Source: Rhodocyclaceae bacterium (GTDB lineage: Bacteria; Pseudomonadota; Gammaproteobacteria; Burkholderiales; Rhodocyclaceae). Taken from it: a stretch of DNA of 64,000 nucleotides. Below, piece by piece: positions 30,891-50,518 of this stretch (its first letter is position 1; each line of letters begins with the position of its first letter). The DNA lies in contig JBGOZF010000019.1 in NCBI GenBank assembly GCA_041480065.1, positions 1,194-65,193 on the forward strand. Direction: 5' to 3'. The notes beneath the pieces are model-generated. The model saw only the letters and a list, made by a program, of their open reading frames with translations. It was not told the DNA's origin and made no database searches. A program made the position numbers and the translations under genes.

Positions 30891-31034
30891 CAAGTCAAGA
30901 TACAAATATTCAACAAAATATGCTATCCGGAACCGCAATGAAATATAATATTTCGGTTTGTCGCATCCTGCGCAAATCGGTCCTTTCCAATGACCTGCTG
31001 TTCGGATCGCGGCTTGGCTCGGAGTGTTGAGATT

Positions 31035-34638: not shown

Positions 34639-35523
34639 TCACGATTGATCCGGCGCCGGACTCTCGCGTCCCAGGTTGCGGTGACGGACCAGTACCCGCA
34701 GCTTGTCGCGGAATCGTGCGACCAATTGTTCCGCGAAATACACCGAGCGGTGCTGGCCGCCGGTGCAGCCGACCGCCACCGTCAGGTAGGAGCGGTTGTC
34801 GCCGATATAGGACGGCAGCCAGGTCTCGATGAAGCGGCCGATGTCGTCGAGCATGCGCATCGCATCGGGCTCCGCTTCCAGGAAGGCGATCACCTCGCTG
34901 TCGAGGCCGGTCAGCACGCGCAACTGCGGATCGTAATGGGGATTGGGCAGGCAGCGGACATCGAAAACGAGATCGGCGTCGAGCGGCAGCCCGTGCTTGA
35001 AGCCGAACGACTCGAACATCAGTGTCAGCCCCGAATTGCTGCCAAGCTCGGCGAAATCCTTGATGAAGGCGCGCAATGCGTTGGGTCGCAGGTTGCTGGT
35101 GTCGATGCGATGCCCTAGCCCGGCCAGATCCTCGAGCATCTCGCGCTCGCGGCGGATCGCCTCGGCCAGCGTGATGTTGCCGGCAGCCAGCGGGTGGCGG
35201 CGGCGCGTTTCGGAAAAGCGCTGGATCAGCACGTCGTCGCGGGCGTGCAGGAAAAGGAAGCGCATATCCACGTCGCCGGCAATCTTGAGGTCGCGCAGTT
35301 GTTCGGGCAGGAAGGACGCCACGCCGGCGCCGCCGCGCATATCCATGGCGACGGCGATGCGCTCGTAACCCTCGGCGCAGAGCTGCTCCACCAGACGCAT
35401 CAGCAGCGCCAGCGGCAGGTTGTCGACGCAGAAATAGCCGGCATCCTCGAGCACGTTCAAGGCGATCGACTTGCCGGAACCGGACAGGCCGCTGATGAGG
35501 ATGAGTTTCACGGCGCAAAGCAT
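34639..35523 (-). CDS. rapZ: RNase adapter protein RapZ (YhbJ), P-loop NTPase
   Basis: Walker A LILISGLSGSGKSIALNVLED. Conserved C-terminal VAVGCTGGQHRSV. Start possibly a GTG at VKLILIS. Confidence 0.85.
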   Translation of the reverse strand: MLCAVKLILISGLSGSGKSIALNVLEDAGYFCVDNLPLALLMRLVEQLCAEGYERIAVAMDMRGGAGVASFLPEQLRDLKIAGDVDMRFLFLHARDDVLIQRFSETRRRHPLAAGNITLAEAIRREREMLEDLAGLGHRIDTSNLRPNALRAFIKDFAELGSNSGLTLMFESFGFKHGLPLDADLVFDVRCLPNPHYDPQLRVLTGLDSEVIAFLEAEPDAMRMLDDIGRFIETWLPSYIGDNRSYLTVAVGCTGGQHRSVYFAEQLVARFRDKLRVLVRHRNLGRESPAPDQS

Positions 35524-35561: not shown

Positions 35562-36476
35562 TCAGGCGGCCATGGTCGGCACGATGTCGCCGTCGACGAT
35601 GGTTACCGCCTTGGCCTTCTGCAGTTCCGCCAGCAGCCAGCCGGCCAGCGCCTCGGCGTCCATGCCCAGGAGCCCCGCGCCGACATCGCGGAACAGCGGC
35701 ACGGCCTGAAGGTAGGCTGCAAGGCCGTCCACGGGAAGGCGCTGCAAGTCCAGCAGATTGAACGCGAAGCAGGCCTTGACCGCGTTGCGGGCGATGCGGG
35801 CCGGATCCTTCTCGAAGGCCTCCAGGCGCCGGAACGCCCTTTCCAGCGCCGCGTCGACGTCGTCGAAGGCCGCGCCATGCCCTGGAATGACTGTCGACAC
35901 CGGCAGACGCGACAGTCTTTCCAGCGTCCCACGCGTGGCTTTCAACGCGCCGGTCCTGCCCAGCAGTTCGCCGAAGACGATGCCGAAGCCGTCCTGCCAG
36001 AGGGCGTCGCCGGAGATCAACAGTCGCTTCTCGGCACAGTGGAAGACCAGCGCCTCCATGTCGTGGCCCGGCGCGGCGAGCGCACGCCAGACCAAGCCGC
36101 CCATCTCGAACTCCTGGTCCGGCGCGATCACACCGTCATGATGGAAGCGGTCGCCCCGCTGGGCCGCCGGCCCCAGCAGCAGCGCCTCCTCGTCCCAGGC
36201 CGCGACATGGGCCTCGATACCGGCGGGGATCACGATCTCGCAGCCATGAGCGCGCCTGACTGCGGCATTGCCGCCGATATGGTCGGAGTGGGAATGCGTG
36301 TTGATGAGGCGGGTCAGCCGGCGGCCATCCAGCGCTGCCTCGACCAGCGCCAAGGTCTGCGTCGCGTGGCCGACATAGCCGCTGTCGACCAGCGTGGCCG
36401 TCTCGCCTTCGAAGAAGAGGATGTTGTTCGACGAAAGCCAGCCGCGCTCGATGATGCGAAGCCGCGGCAACACCAT
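35562..36476 (-). CDS. MBL-fold metallo-hydrolase
   Basis: Zn-binding motif INTHSHSDHIGGN plus downstream His/Asp ligands. Start at MVLPRLRII, overlapping the HMG-CoA lyase stop (TGATG). Confidence 0.7.
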   Translation of the reverse strand: MVLPRLRIIERGWLSSNNILFFEGETATLVDSGYVGHATQTLALVEAALDGRRLTRLINTHSHSDHIGGNAAVRRAHGCEIVIPAGIEAHVAAWDEEALLLGPAAQRGDRFHHDGVIAPDQEFEMGGLVWRALAAPGHDMEALVFHCAEKRLLISGDALWQDGFGIVFGELLGRTGALKATRGTLERLSRLPVSTVIPGHGAAFDDVDAALERAFRRLEAFEKDPARIARNAVKACFAFNLLDLQRLPVDGLAAYLQAVPLFRDVGAGLLGMDAEALAGWLLAELQKAKAVTIVDGDIVPTMAA

Positions 36477-37378
36477 CACCGCCTGGCGATCAGCGCCCGT
36501 GCCACCCGCGAATTCGATTCGCGTCCGAGCTGTTGCGAGATCCAGACGCCAGTTTCGGCCAGCCGCAGCAAATCGATGCCGCTCTCGATGCCCAGTCCCT
36601 GCAACAGCCAGACCACATCCTCGGTGGCGACATTGCCTGCCGCGCCCGGCGCGTAGGGGCAACCGCCGAGACCGGCGACAGAGGCGTCGAACACTCCCAT
36701 GCCCATCTCCAGCGCCGCATAGATGTTGGCGATCGCCATGCCGTAGGTGTCGTGGAAATGGCCGGCGATCTTCTTGAGCGGCGCGCGCCGCGCCACGGCC
36801 TCGATCATCGCCTTGATCTTGAGCGGCGTGCCGACGCCGATGGTGTCGCCCAGGCTGACTTCGTAGCAGCCCATCTCGAGCAGGGAGCGGGTCAGGTCGG
36901 CCACCAGCTTCGGCGCCACCTCGCCCTCGAACGGGCAGCCGAGCACGCACGACAAATAGCCGCGCACCTTGATGTCGGCCTCTTTGGCGGCTTCGATGGC
37001 GGCCCGGAAGCGTTCGAACGATTCGGCGATCGAGCAGTTGATGTTCTTCTGCGAGAAGGATTCCGAGGCGGCGCCGAACACCGCGACCTCCTTCGCACCC
37101 GCTGCCAACGCAGCCTCCAGCCCTTTCATGTTCGGCACCAGCACCGGGTAGGCAACACCCTCGCGCTGCGGAAGCGCGCGCATCAGTTCGGCGCTCTCGG
37201 CCATCTGCGGCACCCACTTCGGCGACACGAAGGCGCCCGCCTCGACGGTCTTGAGCCCGCAGGCGGCAAGACGGTCGATCAGTTCCGCCTTGACCGCGAC
37301 CGGCAGGATGCGGGCCTCGTTCTGCAGCCCGTCGCGAGCGCCCACTTCGACGATGCGGACATTGCGGGGCAGAGTCAT
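36476..37378 (-). CDS. liuE: Hydroxymethylglutaryl-CoA lyase
   Basis: VEVGARDGLQNE, HFHDTYGMAIANIYAALEMG, GLGGCPYA: HMGL signature motifs across the full length. Confidence 0.85.
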   Translation of the reverse strand: MTLPRNVRIVEVGARDGLQNEARILPVAVKAELIDRLAACGLKTVEAGAFVSPKWVPQMAESAELMRALPQREGVAYPVLVPNMKGLEAALAAGAKEVAVFGAASESFSQKNINCSIAESFERFRAAIEAAKEADIKVRGYLSCVLGCPFEGEVAPKLVADLTRSLLEMGCYEVSLGDTIGVGTPLKIKAMIEAVARRAPLKKIAGHFHDTYGMAIANIYAALEMGMGVFDASVAGLGGCPYAPGAAGNVATEDVVWLLQGLGIESGIDLLRLAETGVWISQQLGRESNSRVARALIARR

Positions 37379-37690
37379 GCTCTTCCTGCCGGGACTTGGG
37401 GGCTGTCGGTGGACATGATCATCAGGTTCATGGGAACGATACTATGCCGGCTCGAACGAAATCTGCAAAGCCCACTGCCAATGGAAGATCCGGCCGACCC
37501 GACGTTCCGCTACACCAGGTTTCAAACGTGGTTTCGCCTACGTGGGCTGGCGACATGTCCGACTTGCTCGGCACGCCTTCGCTACGGCCATGTCGGCATA
37601 ACCCGACGCCGTCTGCTTTCTATTCCTTAAGTATCATTGTTGCTATAGTGGACGATGTGCAATCAGGCCCAGCCCCAGAGGGAGAATATA

Positions 37691-38137
37691 GTGGAAAGAA
37701 AGATTCTGTTGGTCGAAGACAATCCGGATGACGAGTTCCTGGCCTTGCGGGCGCTGCGGAAGAACAACGTGGCAAACGAGGTCATCGTCGCCCATGACGG
37801 ATTGGAGGCGCTGGACTACCTGTTCGGCGAAGGCACGCAAGCCGGCCGGGAACGGCTGGTACCGGAGGTCATCCTGCTCGATCTCAAGTTGCCGAAGATC
37901 GATGGGCTGGAAGTGCTGCGCCGCATCCGCGCCGACGAGCGCACCCGGCGCATTCCCACTGTGATCCTTACGACATCGGGCGAAACGATCGACATCGAGA
38001 CCAGCTACGACAACGGCTGCAACAGCTACATCCGCAAGCCGGTCGACTTTGAACAGTTCATCGATGCGGTGCGCCAACTTGGTCTCTACTGGCTGGTGCT
38101 GAACACGACGCACAGGTCCGACACACTGGCTTCCTGA
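37691..38137 (+). CDS. Single-domain response regulator (REC)
   Basis: GTG start after a GGGAGA RBS. KILLVEDNPDDEFL...VILLDLKLPKIDGLEVLRRIR...IRKP: receiver domain with conserved Asp pocket and Lys. Confidence 0.75.
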   Translation: MERKILLVEDNPDDEFLALRALRKNNVANEVIVAHDGLEALDYLFGEGTQAGRERLVPEVILLDLKLPKIDGLEVLRRIRADERTRRIPTVILTTSGETIDIETSYDNGCNSYIRKPVDFEQFIDAVRQLGLYWLVLNTTHRSDTLAS

Positions 38138-38142
38138 CCCTC

Positions 38143-39894
38143 ATGCCGGAAGTCCTGGTCAAGCTCCTGTTCGTCGAGGATGTCGAAGACGATGTATTGC
38201 TCATCGTTCGCCAACTCCGCCAGGGGGGCCTGATAGTCGATTACCAGCGAGTCGACTCGGCCAGGACACTCGAAGCTGCGCTCGACCAGCGCGATTGGGA
38301 CATCGTCGTCACCGATCACAACATGCCCGGTTTCGACTCCGGCGCCGCGCTCGAAATCGTGCGCCACCACAATCCCGACCTGCCCGTGATCATCGTCTCC
38401 GGCAGCATCGGCGAGGAAGTGGCGGTCGAGGCGATGCGCATGGGCGCCAAAGACTACATCATGAAGGACAACCTGCGTCGACTGGTGCCGGCGGTCCGGC
38501 GCGAACTCGACGACGCCGGCGCCAGGCAAGGCCGCCGCGAGGCGGAAGCCGCCATGCAGCATCTGGCGCTGCACGACTCGCTCACGGGGCTAAAGAATCG
38601 AACCAGTTTCCAGCGTGGGCTGGAAAGGCTGCTTGATCAAGCCCGGCGCCAGGACACCCGGCACAGCCTGCTGTTCCTGGACCTGGACCAGTTCAAGGTC
38701 GTGAACGACACCTGCGGCCACCTGGCCGGCGACGAGATGCTCAAGCAACTGGCGGGCGTGCTGCAGCGCTCCATCCGCACCAACGACCATTTGGCGCGCC
38801 TGGGTGGCGACGAGTTCTGCATCCTGCTCGAGAACTGCGTATTGGAACGCGCCCGGGAAATCGCCGAAACCTTGCGCATCGCGGTGCACGATTTCCGCTT
38901 TCTCTGGAACGGCAAGTTCTTTTCCGTCGGCGTCAGCATCGGCATCGTCGGCATCGATCGCAGCAGCGGCAGCGCCAACGACATCCTGAGCGCCGCCGAC
39001 ATTGCCTGCTATGCCGCGAAGGACCGTGGTCGCGACGCGATCCAGGTCTACGAGCGGGATGATCTGGAACTGACCCGGCGGCGCGGCGAGATGGACTGGG
39101 TGAGCCGTATCGACGACGCGCTGGACGGCGGCCATTTCCAGTTGTGGCGCCAGCCCATCCGCTCCCTCGCCGAAGGCGGCGAGAACCGGGTTCATCATTA
39201 CGAACTGCTGTTGCGCATGCTTGACCAGGACGGTACCGTCGTGCTTCCCGGCGCCTTCCTGCCGGCGGCGGAACGCTATGACCGCATGCGCGATATCGAC
39301 CGCTGGGTGGTCGACAATGCGCTCAAGTATGTCGGCGAGCATCAGGAATCCGGCGAACAGTTTCACGCCATCAATCTGTCCGGCGCGTCGATGGGCGACG
39401 ACAGCCTGCGCGAATTCGTCGGCGACCGGATGACGGCGCACGGCGTCGATCCGCGCAGCATCTGTTTCGAGGTCACGGAGACCGTGGCCATCGGCAACTT
39501 CAAGGCGGCGGTCGATTTCATGCAGAACCTGCGCCGGATCGGCTGCCGCTTTGCCCTCGACGACTTCGGCAGCGGCCTCAGTTCGTTCGCCTATCTCAAA
39601 TCGCTGCCGGTGGATTTCATCAAGATCGACGGCAGATTCATCCGCACCCTAGGCACCGATCCCATGGACCGTGCCATCGTCGAGGCCATCCATCGCGTGG
39701 CGCACGTCGCCAACTTGCGCACCATTGCCGAATTCGTCGAGGATGTCACAGTCATTGACGTACTGCGCGACATCGGCGTGGACTTCGCCCAGGGTTATGC
39801 CATCGGCCGGCCGGAACCGCTACCGATACGTGGCCGGCCGGCCAGAGTGGCCGGGTTGCCCGGAATGGTCCTCTCGGGGAAGAGGACATCATGA
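38143..39894 (+). CDS. Response regulator with REC-GGDEF-EAL architecture (c-di-GMP turnover)
   Basis: REC (LLFVEDVEDD...IVVTDHNMPG...KDYIMKD). GGDEF (RLGGDEFCILL). EAL domain (YELLLRM...DDFGSGLSSFAYLKSLPVDFIKID). Starts 5 nt after the REC gene. Confidence 0.85.
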   Translation: MPEVLVKLLFVEDVEDDVLLIVRQLRQGGLIVDYQRVDSARTLEAALDQRDWDIVVTDHNMPGFDSGAALEIVRHHNPDLPVIIVSGSIGEEVAVEAMRMGAKDYIMKDNLRRLVPAVRRELDDAGARQGRREAEAAMQHLALHDSLTGLKNRTSFQRGLERLLDQARRQDTRHSLLFLDLDQFKVVNDTCGHLAGDEMLKQLAGVLQRSIRTNDHLARLGGDEFCILLENCVLERAREIAETLRIAVHDFRFLWNGKFFSVGVSIGIVGIDRSSGSANDILSAADIACYAAKDRGRDAIQVYERDDLELTRRRGEMDWVSRIDDALDGGHFQLWRQPIRSLAEGGENRVHHYELLLRMLDQDGTVVLPGAFLPAAERYDRMRDIDRWVVDNALKYVGEHQESGEQFHAINLSGASMGDDSLREFVGDRMTAHGVDPRSICFEVTETVAIGNFKAAVDFMQNLRRIGCRFALDDFGSGLSSFAYLKSLPVDFIKIDGRFIRTLGTDPMDRAIVEAIHRVAHVANLRTIAEFVEDVTVIDVLRDIGVDFAQGYAIGRPEPLPIRGRPARVAGLPGMVLSGKRTS

Positions 39895-42029
39895 ACGTTT
39901 CCGCCTGCCTGCTGCGCGTCCTGTTGCTCGCCGCCGGCGCCTTGCCGCTGACCGCCAGCGCCGAAGATCCGCTGCTGCTGATGCTCTCCGGCGACGAGCA
40001 GCTCGTCAGCATCGCCACCGGATCGCCGCGGCCAGTGTCCAAAGCACCTTCGACGGCCACCGTCATCACCGCCGACGACATCAAGGCCACCGGCGCCACC
40101 GATTTGAGCGAAGTGCTGGAGACGGTGCCCGGGCTTCATGTCTCCCGAAGCGGCTTCCTTTGGAGGCCGCTCTATTCGATCCGCGGCATCCTCACGCAAT
40201 ACAACCCGGAAGTGTTGGTCATGCTCAACGGCATTCCGATCACGAACGGCTTCTACGGCAATCGCGGTCAGTTGATGGGCGGGTTTCCCATCGAGCATAT
40301 TTCCCGCATCGAAGTCATTCGTGGCCCGGGTTCAGCCCTGTATGGCGCCGAGGCGGTATCGGGCGTGATCAACATCGTCACCAAGACTGCCGACGAAATT
40401 GACGGCACCGAAACAGGTCTGCGCGCGGGCTCCTTCCGCAGCTACGACGGCTGGATCCAGCACGGCGGCAAGTGGGGCGAGATCGATGTCGCTGCCTACC
40501 TGCGTTTGGGCAGCACCGCCGGCTCCCGCCGTACGGTGGAAGCCGATGCCCAGACCTTGCTCGATGGCAAATCCGGCACGCACGCTTCCAATGCACCGGG
40601 GCCCGTCAATGTCGGCTCCGACTCAATCGACGCGCGGCTGGATGTATCGCACGACAAATGGCGCTTTCGCGGCGGATATATCGGTCGCCCCAACAATCAT
40701 GGAACAGGCACAGGCGTCGCGGACGCATTGGACCCGATAACCAAGGCTGACGCGTATTACGCCAACGCCGATCTGACCTGGCATGACGCCAAGTTCAGCC
40801 AGAACTGGGATGTCTCCATCCAAGCGAGCTACTACGACATCGCGGAAACCAATTCCGACGTCACCCTGTTTCCGGCCGGTTCCGCATTGCCGCTGCCGCT
40901 TCCGGGTGGTGCACCGTCCGCCATCGGCATGGTCGGGCGGCCCCAGCACTGGGAACGACAGGAGCGCCTGAATCTGGCGGCGCTCTACGCCGGCTTCGAG
41001 AAGCACAAGCTGCGACTGGGCGCCGGCTACAACCTGGACGATATGTACAAGGTCACCGAAACCAAGAATTTCACTTTCGTAACCCTCCCGGTACTGGGAA
41101 ACGTGCCGATTTGCCTGGACCTCAACTGCTCGACGGTCGCGGCCACCCCGTCGAATGGCCTCTACTTCCTGACCCCGCACGCGCGCCGCTCGGTGTACGC
41201 TTATGCCCAGGACGAGTGGCTTCTGGCGCCCGACTGGTATCTGACCGCCGGTCTGCGCCAAGACCATTACTCGGATTTCGGCAGCACCACCAATCCGCGC
41301 GCCGCCCTGGTCTGGGATACCGCCTACAACCTCACCAGCAAACTGATGTTCGGCCGTGCCTTTCGTGCGCCGTCCTTCGTCGAGCTATACACGATCAACA
41401 ACCCGACGGCCCTCGGCAATCCGAATCTCAAGCCCGAGACCATCAGCACGACGGAACTGGCCTTCTCCTGGCAAGCGAAGCCCAACCTCAAGACCGGCCT
41501 CAACCTGTTCCATTACCGGATGAAAGACGTGATCCGCTTCGTCTCCAATGCCGATCCGACGACCGGCAGCACGGCCCAAAATGCGGGCAATCAGCACGGC
41601 AGGGGCCTGGAACTGGAATTCACCTGGGGCGCCGCGGACGATCTTAGGTTATCGGGCAACTATGCCTATCAACATTCGATCGACGAGAACACCAACCAGG
41701 ATGCCGGCCTGGCGCCCCACCACCATGCCTATCTGCGCACAGATTGGCGCTTCATTCCCGGTTGGACGCTAAGCGGCCAGGTGAATTGGGTCGCCGATCG
41801 CATGCGCCAAGCTATCGACAGCCGTCCGAAGATCGCCGACTACACCACCGCCGACCTGACCCTGCGCACCACGCAACTGCGCAAGGATTGGGAATTCGCG
41901 TTCTCGGTGCGCAACCTGTTCAACGTCGATGCCCGCGAGCCGACCGCGGAATCCTCTGCTGCCAATATTCCCAATGACCTGCCGCTGCCCGGACGCAGCC
42001 TCTATCTTGAGTTGCGTTACCGCCTGTAG
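39891..42029 (+). CDS. TonB-dependent-receptor-like outer membrane protein, paralog 1 (plug + 22-strand barrel-like region)
   Basis: Signal peptide. Plug motifs ATVITADDIKATGATDLSEVLETVPG and IEVIRGPGSALYGAEAVSGVINIVTK. Long barrel region with NP.LKPE and FRAPSF(V/I)E motifs. ATGA overlap with the GGDEF-EAL stop. The C-terminal residue is Leu rather than the usual Phe/Trp. Confidence 0.8.
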   Translation: MNVSACLLRVLLLAAGALPLTASAEDPLLLMLSGDEQLVSIATGSPRPVSKAPSTATVITADDIKATGATDLSEVLETVPGLHVSRSGFLWRPLYSIRGILTQYNPEVLVMLNGIPITNGFYGNRGQLMGGFPIEHISRIEVIRGPGSALYGAEAVSGVINIVTKTADEIDGTETGLRAGSFRSYDGWIQHGGKWGEIDVAAYLRLGSTAGSRRTVEADAQTLLDGKSGTHASNAPGPVNVGSDSIDARLDVSHDKWRFRGGYIGRPNNHGTGTGVADALDPITKADAYYANADLTWHDAKFSQNWDVSIQASYYDIAETNSDVTLFPAGSALPLPLPGGAPSAIGMVGRPQHWERQERLNLAALYAGFEKHKLRLGAGYNLDDMYKVTETKNFTFVTLPVLGNVPICLDLNCSTVAATPSNGLYFLTPHARRSVYAYAQDEWLLAPDWYLTAGLRQDHYSDFGSTTNPRAALVWDTAYNLTSKLMFGRAFRAPSFVELYTINNPTALGNPNLKPETISTTELAFSWQAKPNLKTGLNLFHYRMKDVIRFVSNADPTTGSTAQNAGNQHGRGLELEFTWGAADDLRLSGNYAYQHSIDENTNQDAGLAPHHHAYLRTDWRFIPGWTLSGQVNWVADRMRQAIDSRPKIADYTTADLTLRTTQLRKDWEFAFSVRNLFNVDAREPTAESSAANIPNDLPLPGRSLYLELRYRL

Positions 42030-42068
42030 CCGCATGATCGGCGCGATTCTCTCGGACAGGAAGACATC

Positions 42069-44207
42069 ATGAGCGCCGATTGCCACTGCCTGCTGCGTCT
42101 GGCGTTGTTCGCCGCAGGGGCATTCCCGCTGGCCGCAAGCGCCGAAGATCCGCTCCTGCTGATGCTGTCCGGCGACGAGCAGCTCGTCAGCCTCGCCACC
42201 GGGTCGCCGCGGCCGGTCTCCAAGGCGCCTTCGACGGCCACTGTCATCACCGCCGACGACATCAAGGCCACGGGCGCCACCGATTTGAGCGAAGTGCTGG
42301 AGACCGTGCCTGGGCTTCATGTCTCCCGCAGCGACTTCCTTTGGAAGCCGCTCTATTCGATCCGCGGCATCCTCACGCAGATGAACCCGGAAGTGCTGGT
42401 GATGCTGAACGGCGTCCCCATGACCACTGGCCTCTATGGCGACCGGGGTCGCCTGATGGCCGGCTTCCCGCTCGAGCATGTTTCCCGTATCGAGGTGATA
42501 CGAGGCCCGGGTTCGGCGCTGTACGGTGCCGAGGCTGTGTCGGGCGTCATCAATATTGTCACCAAGACCGCCAAAGAAATTGACGGCACCGAAACAGGTC
42601 TGCGCGCGGGCTCCTTCGACACCTACGACGGCTGGGTCCAGCACGGCGGCAAGTGGGGTGAGGTCGATGTCGCCGCCTACCTGCGCTTGGGGCACACCGC
42701 GGGCTTTCGCCGTACAGTGACGGCCGACGCCCAGACCGCACTCGATAGCGCGTTCGGCACCCACGCTTCCAATGCACCAGGGCCAATCAATACCGGTTAC
42801 GACTCCATCGACGCACGGCTGGATCTATCGTACGACAAGTGGCGCTTTCGCACCGGCTACATCGGTCGCCCCAACAATCATGCACTTGGCGCTGGCGTCG
42901 CGGATGCGCTCGACCCAATATCCGCGGCTAACGCGCATTACGCAAACGCCGATCTGACCTGGCATGACGCCAAGTTCAGCCAGAACTGGGATATCACGGT
43001 CCAGGCAAGCTATTACGACATCGCCGAGACCAACAGCGACGTCATCCTGTTTCCGGCCGGTTCTGCGCTGCCATTGCCGCTGACCGGCGGCAGGGGTTCC
43101 ACCATAGGCATGGTCGGACGGCCCCAGAATTGGGAACGGCAGGAACGACTGAACCTGTCGGCTCTCTATGGCGGATTCGAAAAGCACAAGCTGCGCGTCG
43201 GGGCCGGCTACAACGTGGACGACGTGTACAAGACCACTGAGACCAAGAACTTCACGTTCGATGGCATCTGGCCGGTGTGCATCAACCTCGACTGCTCGAC
43301 AGTCACGGCCACCCAGGCCAACGGACTGCTCTACCTGTCGCCGCATCTACGCCGCTCCCACTACGCATACGCCCAGGACGAATGGGGCTTAGCACCCGAC
43401 TGGACCCTGACAGCCGGATTGCGCCACGACCGCTATTCCGATTTCGGCGGCACCACCAATCCGCGCCTCGCCGTCGTCTGGGACACGGCCTACAACCTGA
43501 CCACCAAGCTGATGTTCGGCCGGGCCTTCCGGGCACCCAGCTTCATCGAGTTCTACAGCATCAACAACCCGGTGTCGCGCGGCAATCCGAATCTCAAGCC
43601 CGAGACCATCAGCACGACGGAACTGGCCTTCGCGTGGCAAGCAAAGCCCAACCTCAAGACCGGCCTCAACCTGTTCCATTACCGGATGAAGGACGTGATC
43701 CGCTGGATCGCGAATGCCGACCCCACCACCGGCAAGACCGCCCAGAACGCCGGCAACCAGCACGGCAGCGGTCTGGAGCTGGAATTCGCCTGGGATGCAT
43801 CCAGCGATCTGCGGCTATCCGGAAACTACGCCTACCAGCGCTCCATCGACGAGAACACGAATCAGGATGCCGGCCTGGCGCCGCATCATCATGCCTATCT
43901 GCGCACGGATTGGCGCTTCGTTCCAGGCTGGACGCTGAGTGGCCAGGTAAACTGGGTCGCGGATCGGATGCGCCAGGCCATCGATAACCGTCCGAAGATT
44001 TCCGACTACACCACCGCCGACCTGACCTTGCGTACCGGCGAGTTGCGCAAGGACTGGGAACTCGCTTTCTCGGTGCGCAACCTGTTCAACGCCGATGCCC
44101 GCGAGCCGACACCGGGACCGAGCACCCCCGGTACTCCGCCCAACATTCCCAACGACCTGCCCCTGCCCGGACGCAGCATCTATGTTGAGTTGCGAATTCG
44201 ACACTGA
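42069..44207 (+). CDS. TonB-dependent-receptor-like outer membrane protein, paralog 2 (tandem duplicate of 39891-42029)
   Basis: Same length (712 aa) and the same motifs. By eye well above 80% nucleotide identity over the 5' half. The duplicated unit includes about 22 nt upstream of the ATG. Confidence 0.8.
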   Translation: MSADCHCLLRLALFAAGAFPLAASAEDPLLLMLSGDEQLVSLATGSPRPVSKAPSTATVITADDIKATGATDLSEVLETVPGLHVSRSDFLWKPLYSIRGILTQMNPEVLVMLNGVPMTTGLYGDRGRLMAGFPLEHVSRIEVIRGPGSALYGAEAVSGVINIVTKTAKEIDGTETGLRAGSFDTYDGWVQHGGKWGEVDVAAYLRLGHTAGFRRTVTADAQTALDSAFGTHASNAPGPINTGYDSIDARLDLSYDKWRFRTGYIGRPNNHALGAGVADALDPISAANAHYANADLTWHDAKFSQNWDITVQASYYDIAETNSDVILFPAGSALPLPLTGGRGSTIGMVGRPQNWERQERLNLSALYGGFEKHKLRVGAGYNVDDVYKTTETKNFTFDGIWPVCINLDCSTVTATQANGLLYLSPHLRRSHYAYAQDEWGLAPDWTLTAGLRHDRYSDFGGTTNPRLAVVWDTAYNLTTKLMFGRAFRAPSFIEFYSINNPVSRGNPNLKPETISTTELAFAWQAKPNLKTGLNLFHYRMKDVIRWIANADPTTGKTAQNAGNQHGSGLELEFAWDASSDLRLSGNYAYQRSIDENTNQDAGLAPHHHAYLRTDWRFVPGWTLSGQVNWVADRMRQAIDNRPKISDYTTADLTLRTGELRKDWELAFSVRNLFNADAREPTPGPSTPGTPPNIPNDLPLPGRSIYVELRIRH

Positions 44208-45144
44208 CGGACGGCTCCGCGCCAGGCGCTTGCTCGCACTCGCCGCCACTGCGCTCTGCCTGCTGTCGCTCGCCGGCGGCGCGCGAGCGGAAACTCGCAT
44301 CAGCGTGCTCTATCCCGAATCCGCCACGCCTGTTGTCAGGCTCTACCAAACCATCGTGGAAGGCATGGCCCGGGCGGGCGACGTGCGCCTGCAAAGCCGC
44401 GCGATTTCCGAAAGGGATTCCCCCGAGGAAATCAAAGCCTGGGTTTCAGCCAACCAGAGTCAGGTGGCCGTCGTCCTCGGCGATTTGCCGCTGGCGGTGA
44501 CCGGATCGCTGGCCACGACGATGCCGCTGATCTATGGCGCCGGCGCCTTGAGCGACAATGCCCGCCCCGGCGTCAGCCTGGCTTCCAGCCCGGCTCAGAT
44601 GTTCAGCCGCCTCCGGCAGATCAAACCCGACGTCGAGCGGGTGTTCGTGGTCTACAAGCCGCAGGCGACCGGCTGGCTGATCGCTGCCGGCCGCGCGGCT
44701 GCACGCGATCAGGGCCTCGAACTGGTCGCCAGTGCCTGCGACGACGTCCAGCAGGCAGGGGCGGCGTTCGGCCGCATCCTGCAACAGGCACGACCCGGCA
44801 AGGATGCCATCTGGCTCACGCTGGATCCGGTCGTACCGGTCAACCAGTTGTTGCCGGTGTTGTTGCGCGAGTCCTGGGACAAACACCTGGTACTGTTCTC
44901 CAACAACCCCGTGGACGTGGCCAAGGGTGCGCTGTTCGCGCTCTATCCCGACTACCCGACCATGGGGCGGCAACTCGCCGAGCGGGCCAAACGCCAACTG
45001 GCAAGACCTTCCCAGGCCGGCCCCGAAGCCAGCGAACACTTGAACGCAGCACTGAATACGCGCACGGCCTCCCATCTGGGTATCGTGCTGGGTGAGCAAC
45101 AGCAGCAGGCGTTCGACCGGATCTTTCCGGAGACCGACAAGTGA
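44182..45144 (+). CDS. Periplasmic binding protein of the uncharacterised ABC-type substrate-binding family (PF04392-like), often partnered with sensor kinases
   Basis: Signal peptide RRLLALAATALCLLSLAGGARA. RISVLYPES...VAVVLGDLPL...VFVVYKP... is an SBP-like alpha/beta fold. The first ATG lies 26 nt inside the TBDR2 3' end, so the start is uncertain. Confidence 0.55.
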   Translation: MLSCEFDTDGRLRARRLLALAATALCLLSLAGGARAETRISVLYPESATPVVRLYQTIVEGMARAGDVRLQSRAISERDSPEEIKAWVSANQSQVAVVLGDLPLAVTGSLATTMPLIYGAGALSDNARPGVSLASSPAQMFSRLRQIKPDVERVFVVYKPQATGWLIAAGRAAARDQGLELVASACDDVQQAGAAFGRILQQARPGKDAIWLTLDPVVPVNQLLPVLLRESWDKHLVLFSNNPVDVAKGALFALYPDYPTMGRQLAERAKRQLARPSQAGPEASEHLNAALNTRTASHLGIVLGEQQQQAFDRIFPETDK

Positions 45145-46658
45145 AGACGACGCGCCTGGCCGATCGGCTCGGACAGCTTAGCGTACGCAAGTCGCTGGCG
45201 CTCGCGACCATTCCCCTGACATTGCTCGGCGCGCTGGCCATCGGCCTGGTCACGGCCGCGCTGTCTACCGAAGAGGTCGCCCAGTACCACGTCCGTGCCG
45301 GTGAGCAGATGACAGCCACGCTTGCGCAGCGCAGCGACCTGGCATTGTTGTATGAAAGCAGCACCGCCATCGCCGAGACGGCCGATTCGCTTTTGAGCAA
45401 TCCGCTGGTGCGAGAAATCCGCGTCGTCGGAAAGACGGGCAAATTGCTTTTCAGCAAGACCAACGGCGCAAGCCATCCATGGAGCTACCCCGCCGCGCCG
45501 AGAGAAGGGACGGCCACGGCGGAACTGGACGACGTCTGGGTATTCGCGCGGCAAGTCAGGACCGCGGCGCCGACGTCGACCGATCCGCAGATACCGGAAG
45601 CAGCGCTGCTCGGAAACACCGGCAACGAAGTCCTGGGCGAGGTTCAACTCGCGCTCGGCAAGGATGCGCTGGTCAAGGCGCGCAGCATCATCTTCTTCGG
45701 CAACCTGTTCACCGCCCTGGGGTTCTCGCTGCTGGTGGTGATCGCCATGCTGCTGCTGGTGCGCAGATTCAGCCGCCCTCTCGAGGCCTTGGCCGACGCC
45801 ATGCGTGAAGCCCGCGACGGCGGCTGGACGGAACCCGAGCGGCTCGATGGGCCACGCGAAATCCGCGAGATCAGCGAAAGCTACAACGCGTTGATGAATA
45901 CCTTGCGCTCGCGCGAGGAAGAACTGCGCGACTTCAACCAGGACCTCGAAGACCGCATCCGCCAGCGTACCCAGGCGCTCGAAGCCGCCAACAAGGAACT
46001 GGAGGCCTTCAGTTACTCCGCCTCTCACGACCTGCGCGCGCCGCTGCGCGCGATCGACGGCTTCGGCAAGGCGCTGCTGGAAGACTACGCGCCATCGCTC
46101 GACCCCACGGCCCAGAATTACCTGAACCGCATGCGCGAGGGGGCCCGGCGCATGAGCGAACTCATCGACAACCTGCTGAAGCTGTCTCGCGTGACGCGCT
46201 ACGAGATGCAACGCACAAACGTGGACATGAGCGAGTTGGCGAGCGTTGTGGTCGCCCAGTTGCGCGAGCAGTATCCCGCCCACCCGGTCGACTTCCGCAT
46301 GTCGCCCAACATGCAGGTCCGGGCGGACCCGAACCTGCTGCGCATCGCGCTCGACAACCTGCTCGGCAACGCCTGGAAATACACCGGCCGGGTGACAAAC
46401 GCCCGCGTGGAGTTCGACCAAATCAGCCGCGACCACGAAACGGTCTATGTGCTGCGCGACAACGGCGCCGGTTTCGACATGCGCTTTGCCGACAAACTAT
46501 TTGGCGCATTCCAGCGCCTGCACGGCAGGGAGTTCGACGGCAACGGCATCGGCCTCGCCATCGTCCAGCGCATCCTGATCCGCCACGGCGGCCGCATCTG
46601 GGCCGAAGCCGAATTGAACAAGGGCGCGTCTTTCTATTTCACGCTGCCGGACTCTTAG
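45141..46658 (+). CDS. Sensor histidine kinase (2 TM, periplasmic domain, HAMP, HisKA, HATPase_c)
   Basis: GTG start overlapping the SBP stop (GTGA). H-box FSYSASHDLRAPLRAI. N/G boxes LLGNAWKYT and DNGAGFDMRFADKLFGAFQRLH...GNGIGLAIVQRI. Confidence 0.85.
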   Translation: MKTTRLADRLGQLSVRKSLALATIPLTLLGALAIGLVTAALSTEEVAQYHVRAGEQMTATLAQRSDLALLYESSTAIAETADSLLSNPLVREIRVVGKTGKLLFSKTNGASHPWSYPAAPREGTATAELDDVWVFARQVRTAAPTSTDPQIPEAALLGNTGNEVLGEVQLALGKDALVKARSIIFFGNLFTALGFSLLVVIAMLLLVRRFSRPLEALADAMREARDGGWTEPERLDGPREIREISESYNALMNTLRSREEELRDFNQDLEDRIRQRTQALEAANKELEAFSYSASHDLRAPLRAIDGFGKALLEDYAPSLDPTAQNYLNRMREGARRMSELIDNLLKLSRVTRYEMQRTNVDMSELASVVVAQLREQYPAHPVDFRMSPNMQVRADPNLLRIALDNLLGNAWKYTGRVTNARVEFDQISRDHETVYVLRDNGAGFDMRFADKLFGAFQRLHGREFDGNGIGLAIVQRILIRHGGRIWAEAELNKGASFYFTLPDS

Positions 46659-46679
46659 GAACAGATCGCAGCCGGGCGC

Positions 46680-47213
46680 CTACCTCTCGGGCGAAATGAC
46701 CGTCGGCGGCGGCACCAGCAAGATCGGCTTGACGGTGGGGGCCGCAGCCGGATCGACGGCCTGTATGACCGATTCCGCAGGGGCGGAGGATGGGAGCGCG
46801 GCGCGAGCTGTCGCTTCGGCCAGCGCCTTTTCGGTCTGGGCGACAATTTCCCGGCCGGTGGCGGCGTCGTAAAACCAGGTCGCGCTCTTGGCCACGGCCC
46901 GCATCCGCGTGCTGTTGGGACTGATGGCCTCGAAGTCGATCTGGATTTCGCGGCCGGCGGCATGGGCAATGATCGGCCCACTGGTATCGGCGGCCGTAGC
47001 ATCCACGCTGATGCCCATCTGCTTCAGCGCATCCAGCGCAGCGTTGCGAACCTCGCGAACCGGAAAAGTGAAAGTGCGATAGATGGTGCCGTTGAGCGTC
47101 TGATTTACGCCCGCCGAGGCGCCGACGCCGAACGCGGTGAGCGCCAGCGACTCGCAGCCGGCCAGCGCGGTCGCCGTGACCATGCAAAGCGCAATTGGAT
47201 AGCGATGCGTCAT
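46680..47213 (-). CDS. Hypothetical lipoprotein
   Basis: MTHRYPIALCMVTATALAGC lipobox, then about 160 aa with no recognised motif. Confidence 0.4.
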   Translation of the reverse strand: MTHRYPIALCMVTATALAGCESLALTAFGVGASAGVNQTLNGTIYRTFTFPVREVRNAALDALKQMGISVDATAADTSGPIIAHAAGREIQIDFEAISPNSTRMRAVAKSATWFYDAATGREIVAQTEKALAEATARAALPSSAPAESVIQAVDPAAAPTVKPILLVPPPTVISPER

Positions 47214-47780
47214 CGACTCCACCTCGAACGGCCAGACAACAATTTTCCCGGGCAGATACAGGCCGGGAGCAATAGTTCCCGACGTCCCGCCACCGTGCGG
47301 CGAGCGGCTTCATCCCGTCATTTCCCGGCAATGCCTGGCGCCGATAGTCCGGGTTTTGATCTGACGAGAACACCCCGGGCTTGATGCGTCGTCCTGTTGC
47401 ATCTCTGCGTAGCTACGCCATCTTCGTTCGCCGGCTGCCCCGGGCGACCGGATTGATTCTCGCCGCCCGGTCGCCCGTGGGACGTTCGATCAAGATCTTC
47501 CTCTTCGGTGTCGGCGCCATCCTGCCGCTGGGTTCGCTGATTTGGGCTTTGCTATTTTGGCACGGCCACGGCATCCGCAGATACAGTCGCGACTGGCGAG
47601 CATGCGCTCCTCGTCGCATGTCGGTAAAGCGTGCTTGAACGGTCGGTGATATTGCTCGCTCTGAAGTCCCGTTGCCTGAACTGCCGTTGGTCTCATGGTA
47701 CTCCGAGGGCTGCAATGGTTCCGGCGGCGGCGATCAAGGTCGCCGAGGCAAGGATGCCTTGGGTGGTACTGTTGGGGTCT

Positions 47781-48008
47781 TTAGGGCCGGAGCGCTCGCG
47801 CTATACTCATGTCATCGCCCAGGCCTTCCCATTGCTCGCTAAGGAAGCTGAGTTGCTGGCACATCATCGCTGCGATCTTCTGGAACGACTCCTGAGGGGT
47901 GCCTGCACGTTGCCTCTCGAAGTCGATCTCGCGCTGAAGCAATATTCCCAGCGGCTTCTTCTCGCCCGAGTTGTTCAAGAACTCTTCGATGGCTCTTTTG
48001 CGGCGCAT
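47781..48008 (-). CDS. Small hypothetical protein (75 aa) in a low-G+C patch
   Basis: Protein-like composition (MRRKRAIEEFLNNSGEKKPLGILLQREIDFERQRAGTPQESFQKIAAMMCQQLSFLSEQWEGLGDD). In-frame stop 27 codons upstream. Weak RBS. No motif recognised. Confidence 0.2.
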   Translation of the reverse strand: MRRKRAIEEFLNNSGEKKPLGILLQREIDFERQRAGTPQESFQKIAAMMCQQLSFLSEQWEGLGDDMSIARALRP

Positions 48009-48645
48009 CTCGAATGCGTCGGGATCAACCTGTGCCAGGAATGCCCAATCCTCAAAATGGAAGTCGGATTCGATTTCCGCGTCCCCGTATCACAATTGTT
48101 CAATCGTTCCAATCGCTCGAAGTCCAACCGGTCGTCTTCATGGCGTCTGTTCTGGCCGACGCCGGCGGACTGCTCCCGGTTGGCGGTCAGCGCAAGTATA
48201 TATTGTTCAGGCTATATCGAACGATATAGCTGTGAAAAATTGTTGTCGTGGCAGGTCATGGAGAATCAGGCGATAGCGGCAAGCAGTCGGCCTCCTGCGT
48301 GGAGGTGCGCCGGCACATGAAAAGCGCCCTGACGACGCGGGGCCGCACCATAAGACCAGCGGCAGCAATGGCCGATCAAGCGTCACAGAGCATTGATTCG
48401 TGAATCTCGGCTGTCGAGTGCGGACCAGATGCCCCAAGGGGCTATTCCCGTGCCTCGTCAGCGTCTCTTGATGGCCGCATGCTACCCAATCGGCGCAGCT
48501 TTCGATTCCTCTGTAAGCCCGATACTGCGCCACCGCGCATGCCTGGCGTCGATCTGCCGAAGGAACGTCCAACGACTCGAAACGAATGAAGTCGGTATAT
48601 GGTCGCGCATGTCATAGATCGCATCGAGATTGCGGAAAGGGAATC

Positions 48646-50487
48646 ATGGAATTCGTCTTTCGTCATTTAGGGCTTATTGGCGGGTTCGTCCTGATTATTG
48701 CAGCTGCGTTCTTTTGGAAGGCACTCCTGTGGCTATTTGGCGTCATCATCGTTCCCGACGACAGCGTCGGAACCGTAACCAAGAAGTTCGTCATCTTTGG
48801 TGCCAACCGCAACCTTCCCGACGGGCAGATCATTGCGCTCGAAGGCGAAGCGGGTTATCAGGCAGACACCCTGCCGCCGGGTTTGCACATCGGCCTGTGG
48901 TCATGGCAGTACACCGTTGAACTCGTCAAGTTCCTCACGGTGCCGCAAGGTTCGGTCGGCGTCGTGCAGGCTTGCGACGGCAAGCCGCTGCCCAGCGGAC
49001 GCGTCATCGCCAAGGGTGTCGAGTGCGAATCCTACCAAGACGCCAAGGCGTTCTTCGCGGGAGGCGGCGAGCGCGGTCCGCAAATGAAAGTCATCCCGCC
49101 CGGGACATACCGCGTCAATCCGATACTTTACGAGGTGCAACTGGCCGACGTGATCAACATTCCCGAGAACAAGGTTGGCATCGTCACCACAAGCGAAGGC
49201 CAACCGCTGCCCACCGGCGAGATCGCAGGCGAGAAGATCGAATCACACAACATGTTCCAGGATCCCGATCTTTTCGTGGCCAACGGCGGATACAAGGGCC
49301 TGCAGGAACAAGTGCTTCTTGCCGGGCGCTACTTTCTGAATCCGCGTTTCGCGGCCGTCGAGATCGTCGACATGATCACGGTGCCCATTGCCACCGTCGG
49401 CGTGGTCATCGCCTACGTCGGCAAGGAGGGCAAGGACGTCACCGGCGATACCTTCAGGCATGGAAATCTCGTATCCAAAGGCGAAAAGGGCGTGTGGGTC
49501 GATCCGCTTGACCCCGGCAAGTACCCCATCAACCCCTACACCCACAAGGTGGTCAACGTCCCGACGGCGAACGTCGTGCTGAACTGGGCTACCGGCAAGA
49601 CGGAAGCGCACCACCTCGATGCCAACCTGTCCACAATCACCGTGCGCTCCGCCGATGGCTTCAAGTTCAATCTGGATGTATCTCAGATCATCCACATCCC
49701 GCGCAACGATGCGCCGAAGGTCATCGCCCGTTTCGGCGACATGAGTGCGCTTGTGACCCAGGTGCTTGAGCCGACCATCGGCAACTACTTCCGCAATGCC
49801 GCGCAAGGCAGCGACATTATCGATTTCCTCAGGAACCGCTCCGTCCGCCAGACTGAGGCCCGCGATTCGATCTCGGCCGCGCTCAAGGAATATAACGTCG
49901 GCGCCGTCGACACGCTGATCGGCGATATCGTTCCGCCCGACGAACTCATGCGCACCTTGACCGACCGCAAGATCGCGGAGCAGGAGCGAGTCACGTACGA
50001 GACCCAGCGGCAGGCACAGGGTGTCCGCCAGGAACTCGAACAGGCCACTGCCCTCGCCGATACCCAGGCGCGTGTGGTCGACGCTGAGCGGAAAGTCACC
50101 ATCGCCGAGTTCGAGGCGCGCGCCACCGTCAAGTCTGCCGAAGGCAATGCCAAGTCCAAGACGATCAACGCCGAGGCGGATGCCACCGTGCTGCGTACCG
50201 TGGGCGAGGCGGGAGGGGCCAAGATCCTGGCCGTCGGCGGCGCCGAGGCGAAGGTCATCCAGCAGAAGGTGAGTTCGATGGAAGCCGGGAACTATGCCGT
50301 CGTTCAGGTGGCCGAGTCACTTGCCAAGGGCGGCATCAAGATCGTCCCCGATATTGTCGCCGGCGGCGCAGATGGCTTGGGCGGCGGATTCGTCAACGTC
50401 CTGCTCGGCAATATGATCCACCAGGACTACGTCAAGCGCCAGGCGGCTGCACCCGGCACTACCGGCAATGGCGCACGCGAGACATGA
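48646..50487 (+). CDS. Flotillin-like SPFH/band-7 protein with N-terminal TM and a long N-terminal repeat-containing extension
   Basis: RBS aaaggg, then ATG. TM GLIGGFVLIIAAAFFWKALLWLFGVIIV. SPFH core (ITVRSADGFKFNLDVSQIIHIPRNDAPKVIARFG...). Flotillin-type A/E-rich coiled coil (AEQERVTYETQRQAQG...AEADATVLRTVGEAGGAKI). Lower G+C than the flanks. Confidence 0.7.
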   Translation: MEFVFRHLGLIGGFVLIIAAAFFWKALLWLFGVIIVPDDSVGTVTKKFVIFGANRNLPDGQIIALEGEAGYQADTLPPGLHIGLWSWQYTVELVKFLTVPQGSVGVVQACDGKPLPSGRVIAKGVECESYQDAKAFFAGGGERGPQMKVIPPGTYRVNPILYEVQLADVINIPENKVGIVTTSEGQPLPTGEIAGEKIESHNMFQDPDLFVANGGYKGLQEQVLLAGRYFLNPRFAAVEIVDMITVPIATVGVVIAYVGKEGKDVTGDTFRHGNLVSKGEKGVWVDPLDPGKYPINPYTHKVVNVPTANVVLNWATGKTEAHHLDANLSTITVRSADGFKFNLDVSQIIHIPRNDAPKVIARFGDMSALVTQVLEPTIGNYFRNAAQGSDIIDFLRNRSVRQTEARDSISAALKEYNVGAVDTLIGDIVPPDELMRTLTDRKIAEQERVTYETQRQAQGVRQELEQATALADTQARVVDAERKVTIAEFEARATVKSAEGNAKSKTINAEADATVLRTVGEAGGAKILAVGGAEAKVIQQKVSSMEAGNYAVVQVAESLAKGGIKIVPDIVAGGADGLGGGFVNVLLGNMIHQDYVKRQAAAPGTTGNGARET

Positions 50488-50518
50488 TTTCTCGCTCCAC
50501 TCACCCGGCCGACCGCCC

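Follow-up and report, generated by a model that had tools for sequence, protein, structure and literature searches.

The window analysed here is a stretch of 64,000 nucleotides from a Rhodocyclaceae bacterium (assembly GCA_041480065.1, contig JBGOZF010000019.1, positions 1,194 to 65,193). At 37655-46658 it carries six genes on the + strand which, according to the list of open reading frames (ORFs) and Pfam, encode a stand-alone receiver (REC), a REC-GGDEF-EAL protein, two TonB-dependent receptors (TBDRs), a periplasmic substrate-binding protein (SBP) and a histidine kinase (Table 1). Comparison with related loci strongly supports that the receptors, the SBP, the kinase and the enzyme of cyclic di-GMP (c-di-GMP) turnover constitute one functional unit, because their synteny is conserved across classes and domain fusions join them in relatives. 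We regard it as probable, and hold with moderate confidence, that the operon is a sensory pathway gated by a TonB-dependent receptor and with c-di-GMP, the messenger by which biofilm formation and motility are controlled, as its output.

Organization of the operon

The six genes are tightly packed, with junctions of 5, -4, 39, -26 and -4 nt. The first TBDR gene is entered through an ATGA overlap at 39891, the SBP gene starts 26 nt within the 3′ end of the second TBDR gene, and a GTGA overlap at 45141 links the SBP gene to the kinase gene. Good Shine-Dalgarno sequences are found ahead of both TBDR genes and the kinase gene, and inspection of motifs found the catalytic motifs intact in all operon proteins that have them. 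The upstream boundary is a divergent HMG-CoA-lyase-like gene on the - strand (36476-37378), and the downstream boundary is a convergent - strand ORF whose end lies 22 nt past the kinase stop codon. An earlier note on this DNA, made from the sequence alone, had listed the same six ORFs, all of which are present on the + strand, and had described their junctions just as they are found here. Its domain assignments agree in every case with Pfam searches of each protein, the agreement being weak for PF04392.

No DNA-binding output is encoded in the six-gene operon according to Pfam, which suggests that the primary output of the module is a second messenger and not transcription. Nor does the operon encode an Hpt protein. 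Genes for extracytoplasmic function (ECF) sigma factors or anti-sigma factors were found neither among the six genes nor among the long ORFs scanned at ~31-52.5 kb, in keeping with what the earlier note had claimed for ECF sigma.

Table 1. Features of the operon and of the region upstream of it, in window coordinates
Feature	Position	Strand	Basis
Intergenic region, presumed promoter region	37379..37654	.	Between divergent HMG-CoA-lyase-like gene and REC gene
Stand-alone receiver (REC-only response regulator, 160 aa)	37655..38137	+	Pfam Response_reg 66 bits
REC-GGDEF-EAL protein (583 aa)	38143..39894	+	Pfam REC 56 bits, GGDEF 152 bits, EAL 208 bits
TBDR1 (712 aa)	39891..42029	+	Pfam Plug 88 bits, barrel 161 bits; signal peptide
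TBDR2 (712 aa), tandem paralogue of TBDR1	42069..44207	+	Pfam Plug 85 bits, barrel 166 bits; signal peptide
Orphan periplasmic SBP, divergent PF04392 member (320 aa from ATG 44182)	44182 (or 44095)..45144	+	PF04392 27.8 bits
Sensor histidine kinase (505 aa): transmembrane segment 1, periplasmic ~140 aa, transmembrane segment 2, HAMP, HisKA, HATPase	45141..46658	+	Pfam HAMP, HisKA, HATPase_c

Conservation and variants of the module

A profile scan of one genome per species gave 409 matching stretches, of which the best 80 were fetched at 10 kb each, their ORFs called and searched with the domains of the window. These 80 loci span beta- and gammaproteobacteria, Desulfuromonadales and Magnetococcales. 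Counts for metagenomes rest on 42 loci of at least 6 kb from an independent scan, and the related loci compared with the window are referred to by L-numbers (L001 etc.). In 78 of the 80 best genome loci the SBP gene is directly followed by a membrane sensor gene on the same strand, and most of these 78 match the window kinase in its N-terminal sensor part as well. A TBDR of the same subfamily is encoded within 10 kb in 60 of the genome loci and adjacent in 41. The GGDEF-EAL part is fused to the sensor in half of them (40/80) and encoded by a separate nearby gene in a further 22. The metagenome loci gave a similar inventory, with a TBDR in 37, fusions of the type kinase-...-GGDEF-EAL in 8 and a sensor fused directly to GGDEF-EAL without a kinase in 11.

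Close relatives, with SBPs 60-92 % identical to that of the window, have the same operon of REC, REC-GGDEF-EAL, one or two TBDRs, SBP and kinase. Five or six genes stand in unchanged order between unrelated flanks in L001, L002, L012, L014-L016 and L170. The flanking genes are hrcA, a ferrochelatase gene and a thioredoxin gene upstream and biotin-type aminotransferase genes downstream in L001, a glutathione S-transferase gene at one end and genes of ribosomal proteins at the opposite end in L002, and leucine-catabolism (liu) genes in both L170 and the window. The gene for the stand-alone REC precedes the REC-GGDEF-EAL gene also in L001/L010, L002, L012, L014, L015 and L016. Two TBDRs are found again in L001, L014 and L015, and a single one in L002, L012 and L016. 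Among the loci the gene order varies, the TBDR gene being located upstream, downstream or on the opposite strand. The earlier note had named a neighbourhood confined to this genome as the mark of a chance juxtaposition. Instead, more than 100 independent loci, flanked by different genes, contain the module again, and the grouping is therefore far beyond chance.

The carriers include, among the betaproteobacteria, Rhodocyclaceae, Sulfuricellaceae, Oxalobacteraceae (Massilia, Noviherbaspirillum, Janthinobacterium), Azonexus/Dechloromonas and Aquabacterium, and among the gammaproteobacteria Methylomonas, Chromatiales, Pseudomonadales and Thiotrichales. Desulfuromonadales and Magnetococcales are further carriers.

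Fusions in the relatives have the architecture HAMP-HisKA-HATPase-REC-Hpt-REC-GGDEF-EAL, and nothing else argues as strongly for signalling from the kinase to the c-di-GMP enzyme, which is probable in the window also. When the receivers of such fused relays were assigned to either the stand-alone REC or the REC of the GGDEF-EAL protein, the scores were low and too similar to distinguish the two. In another variant a Cache-like sensor and HAMP region is fused directly to GGDEF-EAL, with no kinase and with an SBP and a TBDR alongside (L042:3644-5746, L058:3216-5324, L122, L130, L135, L140, L143 and L160-L162, from gammaproteobacteria and metagenomes). These direct fusions suggest that input from an SBP-sensor pair can be wired straight to c-di-GMP. 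A third arrangement has two tandem SBP genes ahead of a gene for a fused kinase-REC-Hpt-REC-GGDEF-EAL protein, and lacks a TBDR in the range that was fetched (L030, L033, L038, L039, L043, L046, L048, L070, L075, L077, L081 and L082). Its hosts are Oxalobacteraceae and unclassified metagenome-assembled genomes of Pseudomonadota, and a dedicated receptor is in this branch apparently either dispensable or encoded elsewhere.

The TonB-dependent receptors

The Pfam scores of the two receptors (Table 1) are to be read against cut-offs of 23.9 bits for Plug and 27 bits for TonB_dep_Rec_b-barrel. The receptors are tandem paralogues with 82 % protein identity and 81 % DNA identity, and the duplication (39866-44207) takes in ~25 nt upstream with the Shine-Dalgarno or ribosome-binding region. 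The periplasmic N-terminus and the start of the plug are 97 % identical, the differences are scattered in the barrel and its loops, and there is an indel at residues ~397-402.

Pfam found neither an STN nor any other N-terminal signalling domain on either receptor, which bears out the earlier note in its claim that they lack a signalling extension, and only ~11 residues separate the signal-peptide cleavage site from the TonB box. The putative TonB box is EQLVSIA (residues 36-42), and its distance from the plug start (AP...VIT) equals that of ETMVVTA in CirA. The motif xVSIATG is conserved across ~70 aligned TBDRs of the subfamily. The ~11 residues ahead of the box form an acidic/hydrophobic extension, EDPLLLMLSGD in TBDR1 (residues 25-35, window 39963-39995) with an equivalent in TBDR2. 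It is conserved throughout the subfamily, as [DE][DE]xxLxLxYGD in distant relatives, and might serve in the periplasm as the place where the SBP or TonB docks.

The nearest solved relatives, CirA, PirA, PfeA and BtuB, align over the plug only. TBDR1 scores 387-1292 bits against full-length or near-full-length TBDRs of related loci and at most ~190 bits against any curated NCBIfam TBDR model. Because of this difference we regard these receptors, as far as similarity scores can tell, as a dedicated subfamily that co-travels with the SBP-sensor pair and not as generic TBDRs.

The C-termini of the subfamily (window 42018-42029 and 44196-44207; L010-L089) are often non-aromatic, with L, M, H or other residues at the end, as in …ELRYRL, …ELRIRH and …AVYRM; outer-membrane barrel proteins typically end in an aromatic residue, usually F.

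The binding protein

The match of the SBP to ABC_sub_bind (PF04392) is marginal, scoring 27.8 bits where the cut-off is 25.9, and is confined to the C-terminal half. The signal peptide ends between ARA and ET. An AlphaFold model was obtained with a mean predicted local distance difference test (pLDDT) score of 93, and the top PDB matches of this predicted structure were 3LKV, 3LFT with bound L-Trp, and 6HNI/6HNJ, of the Tyr-binding CD0873 (E 1e-13 to 1e-15, TM-score 0.5-0.6). Searched against the PDB by sequence with phmmer, the SBP had four chance-level matches to designed pentatricopeptide repeat proteins and nothing real, and a search of NCBIfam gave zero matches. Since the modelled fold matches PF04392 structures and the sequence has no real relative in the PDB and no NCBIfam match, the SBP is best assigned to a divergent branch of PF04392 with a predicted type I periplasmic binding-protein fold.

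Those PF04392 proteins whose structures have been solved are binders of aromatic amino acids that work with ABC importers. Neither a permease nor an ATPase of the ABC type is encoded in the window cluster or in the Pfam-annotated loci, and an ABC ATPase-like ORF was found within 5 kb of the SBP gene in only 1 of 160 related loci; the SBP is therefore an orphan dedicated to the sensor, and is predicted to be a ligand-binding co-sensor. The earlier note had assigned it to a class of binding proteins partnered with sensor kinases, to which an orphan without a permease or ATPase alongside conforms.

The sensor kinase

Hydropathy places the two transmembrane segments of the kinase at residues 17-44 and 182-211, and together with the HAMP domain they support the description of an inner-membrane HAMP kinase in the earlier note. 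HisKA and HATPase_c are found at 50 and 72 bits, respectively. The H-box reads SHDLRAP, and the N, G1 and G2 boxes read NLLGNA, DNGAG and GNGIGL. Pfam found no REC or Hpt domain in the 505-aa protein.

The N-terminal architecture (sCache_4-HAMP-kinase) resembles that of GacS/BarA, and the fused relatives also have a REC-Hpt extension. The NCBIfam BarA model aligns to residues 18-502 of the window kinase. Differences from GacS/BarA are the lack of REC and Hpt in the window kinase, an sCache_4 match far below threshold, and a score of 79.6 bits where the BarA cut-off is 890. The periplasmic region of the relative in L042 reaches the sCache_4 cut-off and that in L008 has a sub-threshold match. 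Our best guess is that the periplasmic domain of the window kinase is a GacS/BarA-like single-Cache sensor. To our knowledge, GacS has no partner SBP or TBDR.

The receiver and the c-di-GMP enzyme

The stand-alone REC protein has the acidic pocket VEDNPDDE and the phospho-acceptor motif VILLDLKLP. In the REC-GGDEF-EAL protein the GGDEF motif at residue 221 is intact, with an RxxD I-site at 212, five residues upstream. The EAL domain has the motifs ELL (354), EVTE (443), DDFGSG (473), KID (494), EFVE (530) and QG (550). From these features the protein is predicted to be a phosphorylation-controlled c-di-GMP cyclase/phosphodiesterase, and as such the output of the module.

Enzyme genes beside the module in relatives

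Many relatives carry genes for cytoplasmic enzymes beside the TBDR gene. The core of this set is an acetolactate-synthase/ScyA-like thiamine pyrophosphate (TPP) enzyme and two small proteins similar to citryl-CoA lyase or citrate synthase. A short-chain dehydrogenase/reductase (SDR) is often added, and sometimes, in some Oxalobacteraceae, a sulfotransferase or GNAT protein. Of the 80 genome loci 47 contain the set, as do 27 of the 42 long metagenome loci (for example L016:1256-5605, L169:376-4652, L008:4420-7771 and L040:5602-6888), and in L016, which belongs to the close clade, the enzyme genes are directly upstream of the REC gene. A tblastn search found none of the set in the window across all 64 kb.

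The linked enzymes may make or consume the ligand. One may speculate that the module is the receiver half of a so far unnoticed class of extracellular chemical communication or public-good sensing, in which a small molecule made by the enzymes and secreted would be re-imported by the TBDR, read by the SBP and sensor and turned into a change in c-di-GMP; we consider this unlikely, though worth keeping in mind. If the enzymes were biosynthetic and absent from the rest of the genome as well, the organism of the window, which retains the signalling genes and two copies of the receptor, would be a listener that eavesdrops on producers, which is speculation.

Proposed signalling route

The composition of the operon suggests a route across the envelope in which every binding and transfer step, as well as the direction of the change in c-di-GMP, is what we infer. 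A scarce or bulky extracellular ligand would be bound by one or both TBDRs and transferred to the periplasm in a TonB-energised manner, as is suggested by the plug, the barrel and the TonB box. The orphan PF04392-type SBP would then capture the ligand, to which its fold, its signal peptide and the lack of an ABC transporter point. The liganded SBP would dock on the ~140-residue Cache-like domain of the kinase and switch its activity via HAMP, a step proposed from the adjacency and translational coupling of the two genes and from analogy with LuxP-LuxQ, TorT-TorS and PahP-PahK, which are described below. The kinase would in turn phosphorylate the REC domain of the REC-GGDEF-EAL protein and so shift the balance between synthesis and breakdown of c-di-GMP, and this step is supported by the fusions in many relatives. 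More speculatively, the stand-alone REC could serve as another target of the kinase, as a sink for phosphate or as part of a relay. The earlier note had proposed a relay from ligand to SBP to kinase to c-di-GMP; synteny and fusions uphold the functional unit, and the direction of the signal rests on topology and analogy.

Comparison with known systems

The PahS-PahP-PahK system of Cycloclasticus sp. P1 (Q91_0827, Q91_0826 and Q91_0825) consists of a TBDR of 687 aa, a periplasmic SBP of 318 aa and a kinase of 771 aa in that order, the genes of PahP and PahK being downstream of pahS (Wang et al. 2023, iScience; PMC10570129). Results from surface plasmon resonance, co-immunoprecipitation, two-hybrid assays and Förster resonance energy transfer (FRET) were read as a relay for polycyclic aromatic hydrocarbons (PAHs) from the receptor to the SBP, the kinase and an unlinked GacA-type regulator (PMC10570129). 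The earlier note, which did not recognise this as a described system, is accordingly too strong on the point, since the same TBDR-SBP-kinase relay has been published there with a different output (PMC10570129).

Compared by published description and not by sequence, the two systems have the order TBDR, SBP, kinase in common, and the sizes of 687/318/771 aa stand against 685-712, 303-338 and 505-691 aa in the unfused relatives here. The TBDRs of both are without an ECF-type signalling domain, and the proposed relay is the same. PahK is described as having no recognisable periplasmic sensor domain, and the same is true of the window kinase at standard Pfam thresholds (PMC10570129). The systems differ in output, which is an unlinked GacA-type DNA-binding regulator in Cycloclasticus and an operon-encoded REC and REC-GGDEF-EAL here, or a fused relay in relatives. 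In Cycloclasticus the ligand is a PAH; the carriers of the module here are mostly not hydrocarbon degraders.

No protein named Cycloclasticus was among the matches of the homologue searches or in the cluster look-up. No member of the family matches at least five of the six published PahP pocket residues (Y42, L135, A210, Y215, F237, L254) at a fixed offset, and with a slack of +/-3 shuffled sequences score nearly as well, hence such matching is non-discriminating. The locus nearest to 687/318/771 aa at ~42 % GC is L110, with 45 % GC, a TBDR of 688 aa, an SBP of 315 aa and a kinase cut by the contig end, and this likeness is suggestive at most. Literature searches on the Pfam/COG families of the module and on the combination of enzymes and TBDR turned up nothing specific beyond the Cycloclasticus papers. 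What is new here is the c-di-GMP output, the breadth of the family, and the linked enzyme set in relatives, which the window lacks. Apart from the possibly related Pah system, this is a large family without experimental characterisation.

Binding-protein-dependent sensors are established in LuxP-LuxQ, TorT-TorS, ChvE-VirA, CBP-ChiS and NspS-MbaA, the last of which pairs an SBP with a GGDEF-EAL protein. As is proposed for the window, an orphan SBP beside a membrane sensor is in these systems the ligand-binding subunit of that sensor. They differ in having no known dedicated TBDR (a porin in the case of ChiS), in SBPs that are not of PF04392 and in other sensor domains. NspS-MbaA also shares the c-di-GMP output with the sensor-GGDEF-EAL variants L042, L058, L122, L130 and L135, which can be described as an NspS-MbaA-like architecture extended by a TonB-dependent receptor. 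Published abstracts likewise describe SBPs as stimulating transmembrane receptors.

In FecA-FecR-FecI and FpvA-FpvR-PvdS a TBDR also heads a trans-envelope signalling route, but these systems need an STN domain, an anti-sigma factor and an ECF sigma factor, none of which is present here. Their signal passes by protein contact, whereas here it would probably pass as the imported ligand. A FecA-type transducer with ECF cell-surface signalling is ruled out by the lack of all three components in the six genes and the ORFs scanned around them.

TBDR genes are linked to two-component systems that sense an imported substrate in PfeS/PfeR-PfeA and in the Bacteroides hybrid two-component systems (HTCS) with SusC/SusD. 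In these, as in PirS/PirR-PirA, the kinase senses in the periplasm what the linked TBDR imports, and the plug of the window TBDRs has PfeA and PirA among its closest relatives of solved structure. The difference is that their regulators bind DNA and induce the receptor gene, and that they are not known to have a separate SBP or a c-di-GMP enzyme.

Alternative explanations

Several observations weigh against a TBDR-gated pathway to c-di-GMP. In 20 of the 80 genome loci no TBDR was in range, and 12 of those 20 have two tandem SBPs; the TBDR is therefore not obligatory for the SBP-sensor pair. A c-di-GMP domain was not seen in 18 of the 80 loci, several of which are incomplete. The periplasmic region of the window kinase matches CHASE8 (E 0.003) and sCache_4 (E 0.14) below their cut-offs, and a single-sequence structure model of the sensor region (pLDDT 56) was too poor for a fold search. 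This kinase is also without the REC and Hpt of the fused relatives, and the phosphotransfer route to the two receivers is assumed. Scans of 37000-47600 gave zero promoter-like sites with a sigma-70 consensus and three terminator-like sites with a terminator consensus, all within genes and fewer than in shuffles, and such consensus scans are uninformative on transcript boundaries.

The loci without a TBDR would agree with receptors that are targets and not inputs, with the SBP and kinase sensing a periplasmic cue alone and the TBDRs being co-expressed cargo, e.g. for uptake in the biofilm state. The variable position of the TBDR gene would fit this too. We find it very unlikely, however, since the nearby TBDRs form one subfamily across classes, pointing to co-evolution for a common ligand, and since a TBDR is immediately adjacent in 41 of the 80 loci. 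It also appears quite unlikely that the operon serves nutrient acquisition with a regulatory side-arm, in which the TBDRs and the SBP would be there for uptake through an inner-membrane transporter encoded elsewhere, and the signalling genes would tune behaviour. Such a role is known for PF04392 proteins, which serve ABC importers of aromatic amino acids, and TBDR genes linked to substrate-sensing two-component systems have their precedents in PfeS/PfeR-PfeA and Bacteroides HTCS. The TPP enzyme, SDR and citryl-CoA-lyase-like enzymes of the relatives could moreover be catabolic. Nevertheless, an ABC ATPase-like gene is near the SBP gene in a single one of the 160 loci, those annotated with Pfam show no permease, the SBP is coupled to a sensor gene and not to a transporter, and the module has no transcriptional regulator to induce uptake.

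A direct hand-off as described for PahS, in which the SBP is docked on the TBDR, takes the ligand directly, detaches and carries the signal to the kinase, so that the hand-over and not free ligand in the periplasm would be the signal, would refine the proposed pathway and is not exclusive of it, and we give it a low but appreciable probability. It has been claimed experimentally for the Cycloclasticus cluster by SPR, co-immunoprecipitation, two-hybrid assays and FRET (PMC10570129), and the conserved ~11-residue TBDR extension, which lies in the region that is 97 % identical between the paralogues, could be the docking site. The two-SBP variants without a nearby TBDR speak against it, as they show that an SBP-sensor pair can work without a dedicated receptor. 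A chance juxtaposition of unrelated genes, which would have in its favour only that proteobacteria are generally rich in genes for TBDRs, two-component systems and GGDEF/EAL proteins, is of practically negligible probability and is rejected by the more than 100 loci with different flanks, the translational coupling and the domain fusions in relatives.

Significance

TonB-dependent receptors are mostly seen in the import of nutrients or in partnership with ECF sigma factors, and for most c-di-GMP enzymes and two-component kinases we know of no input signal. If a TBDR-gated pathway to c-di-GMP is true, it would constitute a third route, general in kind, by which information crosses the Gram-negative envelope, with active import of a signal molecule and subsequent sensing of it in the periplasm. 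As a soluble protein modelled with high confidence, the SBP can be screened for ligands, and the linked enzyme genes hint at the source of the ligand. Betaproteobacteria of the environment and of wastewater (Rhodocyclaceae, Sulfuricellaceae, Oxalobacteraceae) commonly carry the module, and in them the formation of biofilms and flocs matters practically.

Genomic neighbourhood

The operon is located within a leucine-catabolism (liu) neighbourhood, with the HMG-CoA-lyase-like gene upstream and a methylcrotonyl-CoA carboxylase alpha gene downstream (50519-52528, - strand). In L170 (5112-11279), the closest relative, with 92 % identity in the SBP, the carboxylase gene lies immediately next to the kinase gene. 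Between the two, the window has an additional 3.9 kb (46659-50518), with ORFs that have no Pfam match and a gene for a 633-aa SPFH/Band 7 protein (48586-50487). The lowest GC of the window (0.587, at 48-50 kb) is found within this additional DNA, which looks like a secondary insertion. Further upstream, 30990-33023 encodes a FimV-N-like protein whose match stays under the Pfam cut-off, 32813-34252 a protein with an HDOD domain, and 34639-35523, on the - strand, a homologue of RapZ; links to signalling or motility are frequent among HDOD proteins.

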